A DNA stretch of 64,000 nucleotides from Opitutales bacterium (GCA_965226885.1 CBDDEL010000015.1:224001-288000); one strand, 5' to 3'; shown: positions 21,001-39,000, counted from the first letter of the stretch. Made by a program: the numbers.

Positions 21001-24000
21001 CGCCCTCTACTGCATTTCGGTTTCCCTCATGCTGCTCAGTCCGGGAAATTGAGAAATGACCCGTCCCCCCGAGTGGGGGAAAAATCAAAATCAAACCGCC
21101 CGCAGTCTGGGGTGTATATCGTCCAGGCTTTTGCGAAACCCAGTCGGAGTGGCGCCGGTGATTCGCTTGAATGACCGGTTAAATTGGGAAAGCGACTCGA
21201 AACCGACATCGAATGCAACCTCACTGACTCGTTTGTTGGGGTTATAGAGGAGATTTTTGGCCTTCTCGACTCGGATGCGGGTGAGGTAATCGGTAAAAGT
21301 CATACGGGTTGATTTTTTGAACATTTTGCAAAAATAGTGGGCGCTTGTATTGACCGCCCGGGCAGCCCTGTCGAGGGTCAAGGTAGATTCGTAATTATCG
21401 AGTATGAACCGACGCGCTTTGGCCACCATTTCCGGTTCGGAATTTTTTTCTTTGACCATAATGGCATTGCTGATGGAGGCCAGATGCTGGGCAAAAGTCG
21501 CCAGCAGTTGCACAAAAGCTTCATACTGTTCCGGACTCAACACCTTGGTTTGGTAGTAGGCTTCCTCCAGACGCTTCAGGTTTATGCGTGTGCCGAGGGC
21601 GAGGATTTTGCGGGTAATTTTGCTGAAATGTTCGTCGTTCGGCTGATGCAGGAGCACTTGGCCGGTTTTTAAAAATGCGACCACATTTTCTCCCACCCTA
21701 ATGGGGACGGCGGAATCGCAAAGACCGGCAAAACATTTGAGGGTGCGCGGTTTGAAATTGGCCTCGCGCTCCAGTTTTTCCTGCACCCTGAGGCATTCGA
21801 GGCAGCTTTCATTGCTGTCCGCCATCAGGGAGCAGAACGGATTGGTGTTCTCCGACTGCAACCACTCAAGATTGAGAGAACCGGCGATACTCAAGGCCAG
21901 GGGCAAACCGGTGGCAGTGGAATAGGCCTTTTTATAATCGCGATAGATGGCGGTACGTGAAAGTTTTCGCGAAAATTCACGCTTTTGCGTCAAATGATTC
22001 TACGTGCCTAGTATTGGCTTCCACAACAAATATCCAGTCCTGAACTTTAATTATGGCAGGAATTCCGCTAAGTCAAAGGAATCAGTCACATTCTAGAAGA
22101 ATTTATACACTTAAGAAACAAAAATTGACCGGATAAAGAGAATTTTTGCTGAGTTTTTTATCCCGAAATTAGCGATAATAAGGATATGAACGGGCAGCTT
22201 GTGGATTTTTTGCTGTGAAAGAGGAAAAGATTTTGGACGACTGGAAGACGGAACTGGAATTGGCCCCGCCCTGTGATATTTTCACCCATTGAGAACTTTC
22301 ATATGAAAACCTGGCCGAGCTTTTTGAAAATGTCCTCAATCTTATGAATATAAAATCGGAGGGGCCCGCGAACCATCCAGGCCTACACCATTACATGGAT
22401 TTTACCTTCACTTTCTCCCCGCAAAGATCCGCTTGCGTGGAACTTCAGCAGGCCGAGCAAACGGCATTTTTCAGAGCGCTCAACGAAAGCGGCGTCCCGC
22501 GGTTCGCATTTACCCAAAATCAATTCAGGGCCTGCTCCACAATATTGCAAAACGCGCTGGCCATCGCCTTGCACAGAGAAATCGAAACGTGCAGCGAAGT
22601 GAGCGCCAAAGAATTTTGTCCCTTCAAACCGGGCGATGAATCCCCATACCAATTTCTCAGCTCAAAAGTCCATTTATTAAATAACTAACCTTTTTTAAAT
22701 AATTTTAAATAAATAATTTTCCTGGCGGCCCGTGGGAGAGCCGTGTAAAAGCCGGTCCCGGAACCTACCGGGGACGGCTTCTAATACAGGGTAATCCACC
22801 ATCAGTCCCGCAACGACATCCAGCCAGTAGTCAAAGTGGCAATTACTTCCACGGGCGCCAGGTAACTTTCTCTCAGACACTTTGGCAGGTCTATCCGATT
22901 TTAATATCGAATCCAGGTTGAGCGGAGTGAGTTACTTGGGTTGTGGATAGCGGAGAAGGACGGGGATATCGCTCAGTCGGCTGACCAGACGAAAAGTCCC
23001 GCTACGCGTATCGCGATACAAATAGGGCGCCCAGTATCCGATGTCCTCCCGGCGCCACCATTGGCCCGTTTCTTTTTTCTCCGAAAGGATTGTAAAAGAA
23101 TACCTGTACAATTTAAACCGAATGATTTGCGGTGGAGATTCCGGGAATGGATTGTGGGCGAACAACGCCGTAACGTCGGCTTCTCCCTCAATCAGCCTGG
23201 CCCCGGCCAAAAGAACGAACCGGTGCCGCTCATTGCCATAGACGCCTAACTGGGCAAACCAGAGATTCCAATCGAAACGCGGCAGGTGCGGCGCCATGAA
23301 ACGCGGCGCGATGCCGGTATCCTGGGCCTGCCATTTGAAGCGGTAAGTTTTCCAACTCAAGCCCCCGTCATTGGAACCCTCATATTCAATATGGTGGCGG
23401 TGGTGAGTCATACTGCCGAAAAGAGCGTAGCGATTGGCCGATCGAAAATTTCCCAGCAAAACCAGCGGCTGCCGGGTAAAGGCGGGAAGGGAATTGACCG
23501 GAACCCGCATGACGGCCAGAAAAATGTATAAGCCGATATAAAAAAAGGGGAGCAGCACAACGGAAGCGGTAACTTTTCGCCACCAGGCAGCGGCAGCCGG
23601 TGAAACGCCGGTTTTCCTTTCAGGCAAAAAAGGCAAGATTTTTCGAATCGCCCTGTCGTCCAAAAGCAGCATTGCCAGGGCAATGGAATTGTAATTGAGA
23701 AATGTATAATTGCCGGTCAGGAGAATTCCGAGGTTCATTCCGCCCCACAACAAACACAACAAGATGCGCCCCTTGCGCCCGAGGAAAAATAAAAATGGAC
23801 CTACCACTTCGACATAGAGAGTGGCCCCCGTCATGCCGGAATGAACCCAATCGGGAAGGTGCTGGGCATACCAGCCCAGCCAGGTCGGGAAAGGACAGTT
23901 CACATAGTAATCTTGAAGGGCGGAAAAGGTTTTCCAGGCCTCGTCGCCCCCCATGCTCTTGGCTATCCCCGGCTCAAAAATCAAACGAAAGCAGAGCCAC

Positions 24001-36000: not shown

Positions 36001-39000
36001 TGCCGAGCTTTTGTATCAAGATATCGATTTTTTTCAGGGTCCGGCGAAAAACAGGCTCTGTTTTGATTAATTCCTGGCCCATGCCCCACCATTGCGGGCC
36101 CTGGCCGGTAAAAACGAAGACTATCTGCGGTATTTCCGGGGAGGCCCGCCCGATTTCAATTCCGGCCACTTCCTTTTCCCCCGCGCTCCATGCCTTTAAC
36201 CGGGCGGTAATTTCATCCATGCTGGAACCGATTACGGCCAGCCGGTGTTCGTGATGGTTTTTGCGCAATGAAGCGGTGTGGATGACATCGCCCAGATTGA
36301 GGGCGGTCTCCTTCGCCTCCTGATGGTCCGAAAGAAAATCGGCCATCCCCTTAACTACTGCTTTGAGGGAATCGTCCGTATTGCCGGACAAAGGCAGCAA
36401 AACCGGTTGCTTCCGCCTTCTTTTCCGTTTCGCTCCGCCGTCGTGTTGGAGCGCTTCCGCCGGCCGTTCGGACAGAACGATATGAGCATTGGTGCCGCCA
36501 AAACCGAATGAGTTGACAGCGGCCACAGCGGGCTCTTCGGTTTCGGGCAATGGCTCCGCCTCCAGCGGCACCCTCAGGTGCAGCTCCTCGAAGGGAATGT
36601 TGGGGTTGGGAGTCTCAAAATTCAAATTGGGGGGAATGATCCGGTGGTGGAGAACCAATGCGGCCTTGATCAGCCCGGCCACGCCGGAACCTGATTCGAG
36701 ATGGCCGACATTGGTTTTGACGGAACCGATAACACAAAAGTCGTTTTCCGCCCGGCCGCGGCTAAGGACATTGCCCAAGGCCCGCACTTCGATGGGGTCG
36801 CCCACCGGCGTGCCGGTTCCATGAGCTTCCATGTAATTAACCCGGCTGGGAGAGATGCCGGCTTGCTCATAGGCCTCCTCAAGCATCTGCGACTGCGATT
36901 CCAGACCCGGCACCGTCATGGCATTGGTACGCCCGTCCTGGTTGATGACGGTGGCATGAATTACGGCATAGACCGGATCCTTTTCCGCCAAGGCCCGCGA
37001 TAGGGGTTTGATGACGAGCATGCCGGCGCCTTCACCGCGTACGTAGCCATTGGCGCGGGCGTCGAAGGCGAAACATTTGCCGCTCGGCGAAAGCATGGAT
37101 GCCTTGCTGAAACCGATGAACGCATCGGGCATCAGAAGGGCGTTGACGCCGCCCGCCAGGGCAGTGTCGCACTGCCCGTCCCATAAACTGCGGCAGGCCA
37201 GGTTGACGGCCACCAGGGCGGAGGAGCAAGCCGTGTCCACCGATATACTGGGCCCCTTGAAATTGAAAAGGTAGGAAATACGGTTGGAAGCAATGCTCAG
37301 AGTGCTGCCGCTATTGGTGTGCACATCCACATCGGCGGGGCTTTTCATCTGAATATTGGCGTAATCGTTGCTGGCGATTCCGACAAATACCCCGGTACGA
37401 GTGCCGGACAGTTTTTCGGGCGGCTGCCCACCGTCTTCGAGGGCTTCCCAGGCAACCTCCAGGAGCCACCTTTGCTGGGGGTCCATGCGAAGCGCTTCGC
37501 GCGGGGATATTCCAAAAAAACGGGCGTCGAACATTTCGACATTGTCGATAAATCCGCCCCACCGGGTGATCATTTTGCCTGGAATCTGCGGATTGGGATC
37601 ATAATAACGATCGACATTCCAGCGGTCCTCGGGAACGACCCGGATGGCATCCTTGCCAGCCATTAAATTATTCCAGAATGTCGTCGGATGGTTGGCCCCG
37701 CCGGGCAGCCGGCAGCCAATACCGATGATGGCCAGGGGTTCTTTCCCTTTGCCCGTCATACGGATGCCCTCCGCCGTTGTTGGCCGCTCGGGGTAATCGA
37801 GGCAAGCCCTTTCCGGAAAGAAAATTTGTGTTCAATCAAGTCAATCATACCGTGATAAGGGGATATCTTAATGAATAAGGCCATAAGCAATGTCTAGCCA
37901 AAACATGGGACTAAAAATAGAGGTTCGGGGTCGTTCAAATGATGCAAAATATTCGTTGGGAAAGTCCCTCGGCTTTGTCAAGAGCGCTGTTCTTTGTCAA
38001 GAGCGCTGTTCTGGGAAAAAGGATAATATTTTTGCCGTTTCCGGCGGGTGCAGCTGCTAAACGGATAATCTGAAAGGATCATATTTGTGTGTTGGCAGAT
38101 ATTCCGGGTTTCGTTTAAGAAAGGTTTGGAGAGCGAATAATTCTTTGTTGAAAATCGTAAGGAACCCGGACAAATTCCCTGAATACTTGCATATCATAGA
38201 GTTGAAGAATAGTACCGATGGCCCCTTTGTCAATTATTTCGTTGCCCCTGAACGCATAGGTGCCATACCGATTGTTGGTCTCATTTGGCGTTTGTTTCCA
38301 TTTCGATATTTGATCGCTGGCCGCTAATTTATACCCAAACCCTCACTTTTCTCTCTAAGGAATGGGCCTCAATTTTATAGCAAAAAACGTGCCCATAAGT
38401 GGAATTGAAGAAGAAATTGGGGCCTGTAGGGCCGGATTCCGTTGTTGACCGCCCAGATGCGATTCCGTAACGAATTAAATAACATCCAGTATCCCCAGCG
38501 CCATGAAATTAACCGAGATCGCCATTAAAGAAAACCGTTTGACCCTGACGCTGGCCGTTTTCGTCGTTCTCGGCGGGTTGATAGCCTTGTTTAACCTGCC
38601 AAGGTCCGAAGATCCCAAAATTCCTTTCCGATTCGCCCTTGTGACCACTATTTACCCCGGCGCTTCAGCCGAGCGAATGGAAAACCTGGTCTCCAGAAAA
38701 ATCGAGGAAGCGGTCAAAGAGGTGCCTGAAGTCGAATTCGTCAACAGTCTTTCCCGCCGCAACGCTTCGGGGGTCCTCATAAAGCTGAAGGATGATTACA
38801 AAGACTTGCGACCCATTTGGGATCGCTTGCGGAGGAAGATCGAGCGGGTAGGCAATGACTTTCCCGACGGTGTCAGGGGGCCATTTTTTAACGATGAATA
38901 TGGCGAGGTATTCGGCATCATAGTTACTATCTCCAGTCGAAATCTTCATTACCGTGAGATCAAGAATGCGATCGATGCCTTGCACCAGCGATTGCTCGGG

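Follow-up and report, generated by a model that had tools for sequence, protein, structure and literature searches.

Terminal amidation domains (TADs) end the synthetases CarI, VatR, and HcaD, whose products (carmabin, vatiamide, and hectoramide) carry terminal primary amides and retain the residue that the module with the TAD loads. According to the preprint on this family (bioRxiv 10.1101/2024.10.28.620694), the TAD is similar to acyl-ACP reductase (AAR) and can bind either NAD+ or NADH; one of its cysteines is invariant. In vitro, NADH did not bring about any release by the TADs of CarI and VatR, and PCP-bound substrate mimics were not released in the presence of NAD(H), metals, ammonia, or any one of the 20 amino acids. 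No nitrogen-donor gene was found for these pathways, and no gene co-occurred with them consistently. The preprint also noted a cluster of TAD homologs from Verrucomicrobiota; this “cluster 3” of the SSN is mostly from that phylum, and its members invariably have Tyr where CarI has Asp2170.

We analyzed a window of 64,000 nucleotides from a genome of the Opitutales, an order of Verrucomicrobiota. Three open reading frames lie on the minus strand where a preliminary description of this DNA had placed them: a megasynthase of 4,044 amino acids (25625–37759), a PAPS-type sulfotransferase of 369 amino acids (24485–25594; Pfam Sulfotransfer_3, 5.3e-34), and an LMF1/HTTM-type membrane protein of 537 amino acids (22932–24545; Pfam LMF1, 1.3e-39, and LMF1_C, 1.9e-35). 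Divergent from the megasynthase, the plus strand encodes an RND-type permease of 1,030 amino acids (38503–41595), which matches Pfam ACR_tran over its full length (8.2e-135). By the ORF coordinates, the two genes are separated by 743 bp (37760–38502), presumably a promoter region, in which an Rfam search found no family at its gathering score. MiaB-like, SNF, and LptF/G genes are syntenic at the site in 9 of 15 loci, counting the window. The genome also encodes an APS kinase and a PPTase. The megasynthase is its only protein with a KS among multiple domains; the other five KS matches are frames of 420–450 amino acids. As a whole, the locus is best explained, with a probability of roughly one half, as a compact cassette for a lipid, passed on vertically in the Opitutales and comprising the divergent RND permease, the megasynthase, and the sulfotransferase.

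The domain order in the megasynthase (KS, AT, DH, cMT, ER, KR, ACP, C, A, T) was reproduced with Pfam and upholds the earlier reading of a PKS-NRPS in a single protein. A motif search found intact catalytic motifs in all of the domains, which are all on the minus strand. The KS (aa 7–382; 36614–37741) matches ketoacyl-synt (9.9e-99) and Ketoacyl-synt_C (7e-40) and contains DTACSS (aa 175), EAHGTGT (311), and NVGHLE (350). It is followed by the AT (aa 547–857; 35189–36121; Acyl_transf_1, 2e-75), with GHSVGE (636) and YAFH (738); we take the Phe of the latter motif to suggest malonyl. The DH (aa 908–1188; 34196–35038; PKS_DH_N, 2.3e-16, and PS-DH, 2e-26) has LDDHRL (934) and LDACFQ (1102), and the C-methyltransferase (aa 1396–1569; 33053–33574; Methyltransf_12, 4e-20, and Methyltransf_23, 7.3e-14) has LEIGAGTG (1418). 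The ER (aa 1862–2157; 31289–32176) matches ADH_N, ADH_zinc_N, and ADH_zinc_N_2 and has HAGAGGVG (1981). In the KR (aa 2180–2358; 30686–31222; KR, 1e-64), we found GGLGGFC (2186), LDD (from 2271), and YASAN (from 2328). The PKS half closes with an ACP (aa 2462–2525; 30185–30376; PP-binding; GLDSLM at 2489). The NRPS module consists of a condensation domain (aa 2562–3019; 28703–30076; Condensation, 1e-105; HHIVSDA at 2693), an adenylation domain (aa 3041–3512; 27224–28639; AMP-binding, 1e-85), and a peptidyl carrier (about aa 3541–3604; 26948–27139, with estimated limits), which is the second PP-binding stretch and contains GGDSLL (3566). As described before, the last 440 or so amino acids have no match in Pfam.

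By both sequence and predicted structure, this end domain (aa 3634–4033; 25661–26860, minus strand) is a member of the TAD family. We recovered its matches to PDB 9e4s_A (2.8e-87), 9e4x_A (1.1e-86), and positions 66–277 of the NCBIfam PigE model (1.9e-13), and it also matches PigE itself (4ppm, 1.7e-5). PDB entries 9e4s, 9e4u, 9e4x, 9e50, and 9e56 all bear the title “TAD from Carmabin Biosynthetic Pathway.” The preliminary description had cautioned that the solved structures might belong to a paper that it had not traced; they are the CarI TAD (bioRxiv 10.1101/2024.10.28.620694). The end domain is thus not a new kind of release domain, as had been proposed, and belongs to a family published in 2024 from the carmabin synthetase. 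In a Foldseek search, an AF2 model of the end domain (pLDDT 84.5) aligned to the CarI TAD entries with a TMq of 0.83 and 38%–40% identity. The next match was AAR (TM 0.58, 16% identity), which, with the PigE matches, bears out the likeness to both enzymes that had been noted. The TAD residues are T3771-T3772-G3773, G3805-x-G-x-x-G3810, D3831, D3898-D3899-S-F-P3902, and C3970. D3831 is the NAD-selecting Asp and C3970 the putative acyl-accepting cysteine. Spacing among the TTG, the GxGxxG, this Asp, the DDS-x-P, and the Cys is that of CarI, except for three extra residues before the Cys. Among 1,835 proteins scored, 165 matched the tail at E ≤ 1e-5, and about 80 of the best 120 of these are proteins of some 4,000 amino acids that share the domain set, in agreement with the earlier report of many relatives of about 4,000 amino acids.

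The adenylation domain has the specificity code DIL(Q/T)FGLIWK, which predicts glycine. The prediction depends on motif landmarks, and at position 278 either Q or T could be read. A motif script returned the code DIL(Q/T)[FL]GL[IV]W for 17 of 18 family members examined, from both of the TAD classes described below; in the remaining one (P0010), the script was mis-anchored. Among solved structures, the pocket segment is matched best by AB3403 (3.9e-33, with essentially no gaps), followed by DhbF module 1 (2.1e-28); these are both glycine modules (review PMC10510592), and the glycine codes in the literature include DILQLGMIWK and DILQLGVI. Hence, the adenylation domain looks glycine-specific, which we count as new.

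From the sequences, we infer the following pathway. The reducing PKS half, either working iteratively or extending a fatty-acyl primer, would use malonyl units and SAM to build an acyl chain that is methyl-branched and largely reduced. The condensation domain would then N-acylate the glycine loaded by the adenylation domain. The acyl-glycyl thioester would pass to Cys3970 of the TAD and be released in an NAD-assisted step, most likely as a primary amide. Finally, the sulfotransferase would sulfate the product at a hydroxyl or a nitrogen, and the RND permease would move it to the envelope.

By analogy with the carmabin, vatiamide, and hectoramide pathways, we put the chances that the TAD releases a primary amide at about even. 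No nitrogen-donor gene is evident in the cassette. The preliminary description had favored reductive release to an amino alcohol, which, given a glycine-specific adenylation domain, would be an N-acylethanolamine. Because primary amides, and not alcohols or aldehydes, are formed in all three TAD pathways whose products are known, reductive release becomes a rival, which we consider live but less likely than the amide. Under this alternative, the AAR-like end domain would reduce the acyl-glycyl thioester on Cys3970 to an N-acyl-aminoacetaldehyde and on to the N-acylethanolamine, whose primary hydroxyl would be sulfated. AAR, an enzyme that converts acyl-ACP to aldehydes, has the same fold and catalytic Cys as the TAD, and the AAR-like TR domain of TamH is described as an NADH-dependent thioester reductase. 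The nearest experimentally characterized relatives thus reduce thioesters to aldehydes, which argues against the amide. Another difficulty for the amide is that a fully reduced chain with glycine would leave no obvious hydroxyl for sulfation; with glycine and a full reductive loop, the terminus is the most obvious acceptor. Also, in about 22 proteins, an N-terminal NAD_binding_4 (fatty-acyl/thioester reductase) domain is fused to a C-terminal sulfotransferase that is 35%–39% identical to this one. These fusions fit “reduce, then sulfate” rather than an amide, but they form one narrow clade (74%–87% mutual identity) and their reductase fold differs from the TAD. Furthermore, reduction by AAR-type enzymes ends at the aldehyde and the cassette has no conserved second reductase, the failure of NADH to support release by the CarI and VatR TADs speaks against reduction, and the megasynthase keeps both the Asp responsible for choosing NAD rather than NADP and the Asp that the authors of the preprint think favors NAD+.

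Binding of NAD+ by the TAD would also suit a different use of glycine, as a sacrificial nitrogen donor. The TAD with NAD would oxidize the glycyl C-alpha to N bond and yield a primary fatty amide and glyoxylate, as an NAD analog of the myxothiazol monooxygenase route. Known glycine-dependent amidation does cleave glycine, and the monooxygenase-bearing modules carry DILQLGMIWK, which is nearly identical to the code in the megasynthase family. We consider this most improbable: all three known TAD products keep the residue that would be cleaved, and the papers we consulted contained no precedent for this chemistry.

The sulfotransferase gene starts just 30 nt past the stop codon of the megasynthase. 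Its best solved matches are 2z6v and 2zq5, whose database title is only “Putative uncharacterized protein” and which we take to be mycobacterial Stf proteins; chain 2z6v_A has corresponding segments that align with GHWRSGTT (aa 72–79) and RNPYNVFCS. At E ≤ 1e-10, 3,580 proteins belong to this large family, and in one TAD-positive Opitutales genome the gene is 510 kb from the megasynthase. If the sulfotransferase were an unrelated envelope enzyme that merely adjoins the megasynthase in Opitutales, then the product would be unsulfated. We disfavor this as improbable, since an ortholog (at least 51% identity) tracks the megasynthase: in our sample of 401 genomes from the order, it is present in exactly 16 of 16 TAD-positive genomes, which fall into about four families and are not independent where related, and in 0 of 385 others. 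Fifteen other genomes of this sample have only paralogs with 32%–37% identity, and among 400 TAD-negative genomes from the phylum, no copy was above 37% identity. Adjacency is conserved as well: of 15 Opitutales relatives, 14 have the sulfotransferase directly downstream of the megasynthase. The sulfotransferase is therefore a true partner of the megasynthase, on far stronger evidence than had been presented. On the other side, none of 71 TAD loci of other phyla has this sulfotransferase nearby, in line with the lack of a consistent companion gene in the preprint. Because it accompanies the megasynthase, an exported sulfated lipid is probable; the best explanation for the product, at about even odds in its full form, is an exported, sulfated, methyl-branched lipid derived from N-acyl-glycine, most likely an amide.

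Linkage of the sulfotransferase differs between two classes of TAD. The megasynthase and its 14 closest relatives have Asp (VDDSFP), and 66 others have VDYSFP. Judging from these sequences, the Opitutales lineage retains the active-site Asp of CarI, whereas the copies in Verrucomicrobiales mostly have Tyr and another neighbor, which we count as new. The sulfotransferase adjoins in 7 of 7 loci of the Asp class, with the RND gene upstream, and in only 4 of 63 loci of the Tyr class, of which 32 have a protein of about 740 amino acids with a GDSL/SGNH domain downstream. All five of the Verrucomicrobiales genomes with a Tyr-class megasynthase that we checked have an unlinked sulfotransferase (42%–46% identity); its presence supports the partnership, and its lack of linkage would fit an unrelated role. 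SSN cluster 3 appears to resemble the megasynthase in its PKS-NRPS-TAD architecture, A-domain code, and phylum, and in the presence of a sulfotransferase ortholog in these five genomes.

An ortholog of the RND permease is directly upstream and divergent in all 12 of the Opitutales relatives examined, and we propose that it exports the product. Its score for NCBIfam RND_permease_2 is 383 bits, far below the cutoff of 1,250 bits, so it is a divergent RND protein. No membrane-fusion or outer-membrane partner gene adjoins it. At the other end of the locus, the ATG of LMF1 Met21 (24485–24483) overlaps the TGA stop codon of the sulfotransferase by one base. This coupling is seen in the source genome, but among the 15 relatives we found only one remnant of 134 amino acids, in a single relative and followed by transposase genes. 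This confirms that LMF1 adjacency is not conserved, and LMF1 is a recent addition in the source genus, outside the core unit.

Compared with fungal iterative PKS-NRPSs (psoA, pynA in the preliminary description, and LovB for the PKS half), the megasynthase has the same order of domains from KS to T in one polypeptide of about 4,000 amino acids, so “fungal-type” holds for its architecture. It does not hold for the sequence. Among solved structures, the PKS half scores best against mycocerosic acid synthase (1127 bits, versus 827 for LovB); the 1000 bits for fungal psoA span both halves of the megasynthase. The KS-AT scores are also higher for bacterial synthases (795 bits for 7zma, 723 for PikA, 723 for CurL, and 661 for mycocerosic acid synthase, versus 523 for LovB and 518 for psoA). 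By these scores, the nearest relative of the PKS half is the bacterial mycocerosic acid synthase rather than a fungal enzyme, which we count as new. Also, the fungal proteins terminate in an SDR-type reductase/Dieckmann domain instead of a TAD.

Like the TADs of CarI, VatR, and HcaD (from Moorena), the end domain is placed after the last PCP of an NRPS module, has the two-lobe fold, and retains the TTG, GxGxxG, NAD-selecting Asp, Asp-Asp-Ser loop, and invariant Cys; Gly2172 in the DDSGP loop of CarI is replaced by Phe. Its host is a one-protein reducing PKS with a single glycine module rather than a multi-module cyanobacterial NRPS, and a sulfotransferase ortholog always co-occurs with it but is absent near the TADs of other phyla (0 of 71 loci). 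With AAR, the TR domain of TamH, and the N-terminal part of PigE, the end domain shares a Rossmann lobe and an N-lobe, a catalytic Cys in the cleft, and a carrier-bound thioester substrate. However, AAR is a stand-alone, NADPH-dependent enzyme that makes an aldehyde, and PigE and TamH hand the aldehyde to a fused transaminase, which the megasynthase lacks.

The sulfotransferase domain of curacin CurM lies in cis between ACP and TE and activates a beta-hydroxyl for decarboxylative elimination. This olefin synthase domain (PDB 4gox; a weak match, 1.7e-3) also pairs a PAPS sulfotransferase with a PKS, but the sulfotransferase here is a separate protein that follows an NRPS module and TAD. In mycobacteria, mycocerosic acid synthase and the sulfolipid-1 pathway (Pks2, Stf0, and MmpL8) obtain methyls from methylmalonyl-CoA, whereas the megasynthase has a cMT domain. 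The mycobacterial systems do not have a fused NRPS glycine module and TAD, their permease is MmpL-like rather than AcrB-like, and their trehalose and acyltransferase genes have no equivalent here. What the cassette shares with them is a reducing type I PKS for methyl-branched acyl chains, as in mycocerosic acid synthase, and the sulfolipid-1 logic of an RND-superfamily permease next to the synthase together with an Stf-like sulfotransferase.

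Three genes on one strand had been reported at this site, and the ORF coordinates and Pfam matches bear this out. The megasynthase (25625-37759, minus strand; 4,044 amino acids) is followed by a sulfotransferase (24485-25594, minus strand; 369 amino acids, Pfam Sulfotransfer_3) and by an LMF1 protein (22932-24545, minus strand; 537 amino acids, Pfam LMF1 and LMF1_C). The spacer between the megasynthase stop codon and the sulfotransferase start is 30 nt, and the TGA stop codon of the sulfotransferase shares one base with an in-frame ATG (Met21) of the LMF1 ORF, so in this genome the three genes form one operon. 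Rfam gave no match in or around it. The domains of the megasynthase run in the order KS, AT, DH, C-methyltransferase, ER, KR, ACP, C, A, and T; every catalytic motif that we searched for is there, and the final ~440 residues have no Pfam assignment.

These final residues hold a domain of a family that has been described before. Rankin, Khare, Gerwick, Sherman, Gerwick, and Smith (bioRxiv 10.1101/2024.10.28.620694) defined a 400-amino-acid “terminal amidation domain” (TAD) that terminates CarI, VatR, and HcaD, whose products (the carmabins, vatiamides E-F, and hectoramide B) have terminal amides. In their crystal structure, the N-lobe is macrodomain-like and the C-lobe is a Rossmann fold; the domain binds NAD(H), not NADP(H), the invariant Cys2238 of the CarI TAD is within reach of the pantetheine arm of the PCP, and the domain is likened to cyanobacterial acyl-ACP reductase (AAR). 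When we compared the megasynthase tail with solved chains using phmmer, the hits were to 9e4s_A (2.8e-87) and 9e4x_A (1.1e-86), with residues 31-430 of the query on residues 18-415 of the chain, and the whole ~400-residue domain can be aligned to the CarI TAD at significant sequence similarity. The PigE structure 4ppm (1.7e-5) and the NCBIfam PigE model (1.9e-13) matched the tail as well; the hits to the two chains and to the PigE model reproduce those of the preliminary description. An AF2 model of the domain, built from a 29-sequence alignment, had a pLDDT of 84.5 and a pTM of 0.86. Foldseek ranks 1-10 for this model against the PDB were all CarI TAD chains (TMq 0.80-0.83, TMt 0.87-0.94, 38-40% identity), and all ten, from entries 9e4s, 9e4u, 9e4x, 9e50, and 9e56 (released 2025-02-26), are titled “TAD from Carmabin Biosynthetic Pathway”. 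The model has both lobes of the TAD fold, the macrodomain-like N-lobe and the Rossmann C-lobe.

The sequence motifs are those of CarI. C3970 corresponds to CarI Cys2238 and T3771-T3772-G3773 to CarI 2042-2044, and the cysteine and the Thr-Thr-Gly are invariant across 117 aligned homologues. A GxGxxG motif (GLGSIG, 3805-3810) is accompanied by D3831, the counterpart of CarI Asp2102 (the aspartate responsible for the choice of NAD(H) over NADP(H)), at the same 26-residue spacing as in CarI. The loop D3898-D3899-S-F-P keeps both aspartates of the CarI loop Asp-Asp-Ser-Gly-cisPro, with Phe in place of Gly at a position that is variable (A/G/S/Y/F) across the aligned homologues; in the TAD structure, CarI Asp2170 adjoins the nicotinamide (bioRxiv 10.1101/2024.10.28.620694). 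The spacing of the motifs matches the CarI residue numbering, save for three additional residues ahead of the cysteine, and by Pfam order and the tail alignment the domain lies directly behind the PCP, at the C-terminal end of the last NRPS module. The CarI-like fold, motifs, and spacing therefore make the end domain a member of the TAD family, and on the same evidence of sequence, fold, and motifs it is not the new kind of release domain that had been proposed. We also considered whether it is an AAR, the next Foldseek hit after the TAD chains, and rejected this, given 16% identity, a TM score of 0.58, the NAD-selecting aspartate, and the fusion to an NRPS; AAR is a related superfamily to which the domain does not belong.

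Of 120 homologues listed for the tail, about 80 are ~4,000-residue proteins with the same domain set, and the rest include C-A-T-TAD synthetases and ~2,500-residue KS-AT-DH-ER-KR-ACP-TAD proteins. In these ~2,500-residue proteins, the TAD comes after an ACP, without an NRPS module; TADs 54-100% identical to their tails occur at nine loci (L114-L121 and L124) in bins of Gemmataceae and other Planctomycetota, with no sulfotransferase of the window's family within 9 kb. The preprint found TAD homologues in many phyla, with one cluster “mostly comprised of Verrucomicrobiota” in which Tyr replaces Asp2170 (bioRxiv 10.1101/2024.10.28.620694). By a motif-based count among the matches listed, the window protein and its 14 closest relatives (tails 55-92% identical) have VDDSFP, as CarI does, and 66 others have VDYSFP, the preprint's Tyr class. 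The cysteine, TTG, GxGxxG, and NAD-selecting Asp motifs are invariant throughout the aligned members of both classes. Where relatives are named, the Asp class is from Opitutales and the Tyr class from Verrucomicrobiales/Akkermansiaceae bins. In a sample of 401 genomes of the order, 16 (including the window's own) have a TAD, nearly always in an open frame of ~4,030-4,070 amino acids; these comprise all nine genomes of the window's family and members of three further families. In a sample of the phylum, just one of 401 genomes, the window's own, has it.

The specificity residues of the A domain, located by the usual landmarks (FDxS, GGE, and YGPTE), read DIL(Q/T)FGLIWK, with position 278 ambiguous. 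Relatives of both TAD classes have DIL(Q/T)[FL]GL[IV]WK, with Leu at position 299. DILQLGMIWK and DILQLGVI have been published as glycine codes, and the code of the window is close to DILQLG[LMV]IWK; the exact code DILQLGLIWK is not mentioned in the literature that we searched. Among solved structures, the pocket segment (residues 3215-3345) best matches AB3403 (4zxh/4zxi, 3.9e-33), nearly without gaps, and then DhbF (5u89). 4ZXI is a holo-PCP structure with AMP and glycine, and 5U89 is the A-PCP of the first module of DhbF, which has glycine and threonine modules (review PMC10510592). Because the code is near published glycine codes and the top pocket matches are glycine modules, glycine is the likely substrate.

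The sulfotransferase matches Pfam Sulfotransfer_3 at 5.3e-34. Its top solved matches, 2z6v and 2zq5 (about 4e-6), are listed as “Putative uncharacterized protein” and are presumably mycobacterial Stf proteins; the sulfotransferase domain of a polyketide synthase, 4gox, matched at 1.7e-3. GHWRSGTT and RNPYNVFCS, which we take to be the PAPS-binding 5'-PSB and 3'-PB motifs, line up with the corresponding stretches of chain 2z6v_A, and the genome encodes an APS kinase and a PPTase. A CurM-like role, with the sulfate lost in a decarboxylation, was dropped because there is no thioesterase and an NRPS module stands behind the PKS.

We retrieved 9 kb downstream of the megasynthase for 15 relatives. 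The sulfotransferase gene comes directly after the megasynthase in 14 of them, and in the fifteenth a MiaB-like gene does. In the 401-genome sample of the order, the genomes that have a sulfotransferase with 51% identity or more are precisely the 16 with a TAD (in the one where it is not adjacent, it is 510 kb away), and 15 more genomes have paralogues at 32-37% identity only. Above 37% identity, no copy turned up in any of the 400 TAD-negative genomes sampled from the phylum. This co-occurrence is a strong pattern and not a statistical test, because the genomes are related and come from few lineages. For 70 Verrucomicrobiota loci, the sequence downstream was long enough to judge: the sulfotransferase gene adjoins the megasynthase in all seven Asp-class loci, which come from genomes of relatives already counted and therefore give no independent support, and in four of the 63 Tyr-class loci. 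In those four (L091, L092, L094, and L097), the sulfotransferase gene is followed on the same strand by DUF1501 and PSCyt2/PSD1 (DUF1549/DUF1553) genes. An unlinked copy with 42-46% identity is present in five of five Tyr-class genomes. Among 78 TAD loci across phyla, the sulfotransferase is within 9 kb in seven Opitutales loci only (0 of the 71 others).

Upstream of the megasynthase and divergent from it is a gene for an RND permease (38503-41595, plus strand). A divergent permease of ~1,030 amino acids is upstream in all 12 relatives examined, and the permease, megasynthase, and sulfotransferase form a conserved trio. In five Tyr-class genomes, no RND orthologue is beside the megasynthase, and the RND genes elsewhere in them are only 20-35% identical. 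LMF1 was dropped as a core component: among the 15 relatives we found just a 134-amino-acid remnant, in the closest relative, where two transposase genes follow it. In that relative (locus L003, 1-11326), the megasynthase lies in two overlapping frames (1-4188 and 3983-11326), and the genome search reported an open frame of only 2,507 amino acids there; either the operon is decaying in this relative, or the split gene and the remnant come from faulty assembly. In the Tyr class, 32 of 63 loci, all from Verrucomicrobiales, have directly downstream a gene (e.g., L019, 7479-9701, plus strand) for a ~740-residue protein whose N-terminal part is a GDSL/SGNH hydrolase domain and of which about 490 residues belong to no Pfam or NCBIfam family. 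A search of five Asp-class genomes, run without a positive control, did not find this protein.

Genes for a MiaB-like protein, an SNF symporter, and LptF/G are downstream of the operon in nine of 15 loci (the window counted), so the site is stable and inheritance looks vertical. Some other neighbors of the operon recur only in relatives of the same genus. A PocR-sensor/AraC regulator (21091-21993, minus strand) downstream of the operon and, beside it, a 114-residue ORF without a Pfam family (22344-22688, plus strand) were found at three loci each, including the window. Behind the RND gene are ArsC-like, SDR, and GNAT genes (41596-43378, plus strand), of which the SDR and GNAT genes recur in two of 12 loci, again within the genus. 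A few kb past the cassette are a 491-residue ORF with a weak likeness to DDE transposases (46593-48068, plus strand; Pfam E 2.5e-4) and two tRNA genes (48918-48991, plus strand, and 50169-50241, minus strand).

We propose that the PKS half would build a methyl-branched, reduced acyl chain, that glycine would be N-acylated with it, and that the acyl-glycyl chain would pass to Cys3970 of the TAD; the product would then be released, sulfated, and exported. Release as a primary amide, to which we give a probability of about 0.5, is favored because the TADs whose products are known, the only ones to judge by, are homologues of the domain and their active-site residues are fully conserved in it. Neither the CarI nor the VatR TAD set anything free from loaded PCPs, whether NAD(H), metals, ammonia, or any amino acid was supplied, and the authors did not find a gene for a nitrogen donor (bioRxiv 10.1101/2024.10.28.620694). 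This preprint and the hectoramide paper, which offers ammonolysis as a hypothesis only, are the only accounts of TAD biochemistry that we found. An N-acyl-glycinamide would have no obvious hydroxyl for the sulfate, and this argues for reduction to an aldehyde or alcohol followed by O-sulfation, as do the chemistry of AAR and of TamH and the existence of reductase-sulfotransferase fusions. A search for longer forms of the sulfotransferase gave about 22 such fusions, proteins of 760-830 amino acids with an N-terminal NAD_binding_4 domain (fatty-acyl/thioester reductase) and a Sulfotransfer_3 domain 35-39% identical to the window's; they form a single narrow clade and may be alkyl sulfate makers. 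Genome contigs gave no context for the fusions, and four short metagenome contigs were uninformative, except that one fusion gene is followed by a gene for a fatty-acid desaturase. We hold reductive release to be less likely than the amide but a serious rival, and some other release chemistry takes the remainder.

The TAD itself is already known. The preprint provides a solved structure, and the natural products suggest amidation, with the activity and the nitrogen source not found so far; its main text has no match to the word “sulfotransferase” (bioRxiv 10.1101/2024.10.28.620694). What is new here is a one-protein architecture, predicted to load glycine, with an obligate sulfotransferase and RND pump; a class in Opitutales that retains the Asp; and a neighboring gene that changes together with the Asp/Tyr switch. 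The exact co-occurrence with the sulfotransferase and this switch are clues that the preprint's main text does not contain. The literature that we searched, the preprint's main text included, holds no description of the cluster itself (an Opitutales PKS-NRPS with a sulfotransferase). By its predicted roles, the cassette is a TAD system of very small size that is complete in itself: a single synthase that loads the simplest of the amino acids, a single tailoring enzyme, and a single pump. It is kept at one chromosomal site in whole Opitutales families, and the megasynthase is the genome's only type I PKS; the product may therefore be an envelope lipid typical of the lineage and not an occasional secondary metabolite. 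We would go further only tentatively, to the suggestion that Verrucomicrobiota with the megasynthase make envelope lipids of a class not described so far, namely sulfated, methyl-branched derivatives of N-acyl-glycine (amides or ethanolamine O-sulfates) that one protein builds and a dedicated RND pump exports, and that TAD chemistry in this phylum is other than plain amidation, for instance reduction and then sulfation. If so, the obligate sulfotransferase and the Asp/Tyr split would mark this difference in chemistry, and the megasynthase-sulfotransferase pair would be the simplest system for working out the unsolved TAD reaction.

The megasynthase had also been called fungal-type, which holds for its domain order only. 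Scored against solved structures only, its KS-AT is nearest to bacterial chains, with 795 bits for 7zma, 723 each for PikA and CurL, 661 for mycocerosic acid synthase, and about 635 for DEBS, versus 523 for LovB and 518 for psoA among fungal structures. For the whole megasynthase, mycocerosic acid synthase came first (1127 bits) though it covers only the PKS half, and fungal psoA scored 1000. As bacterial chains outscore fungal ones, “fungal-type” describes the layout alone. Neither a loading module nor another PKS gene lies near the megasynthase, and its KS is the sole multidomain KS in the genome; from its sequence, the PKS module would either iterate or extend a fatty-acyl primer. Fungal iterative PKS-NRPSs share with the megasynthase the Pfam order KS-AT-DH-cMT-ER-KR-ACP-C-A-T in one protein. 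Neither NAD_binding_4 nor Epimerase is among the 25 best of its 29 Pfam families, and where the fungal enzymes have a terminal SDR-type reductase/Dieckmann cyclase domain, the megasynthase ends in a TAD instead.
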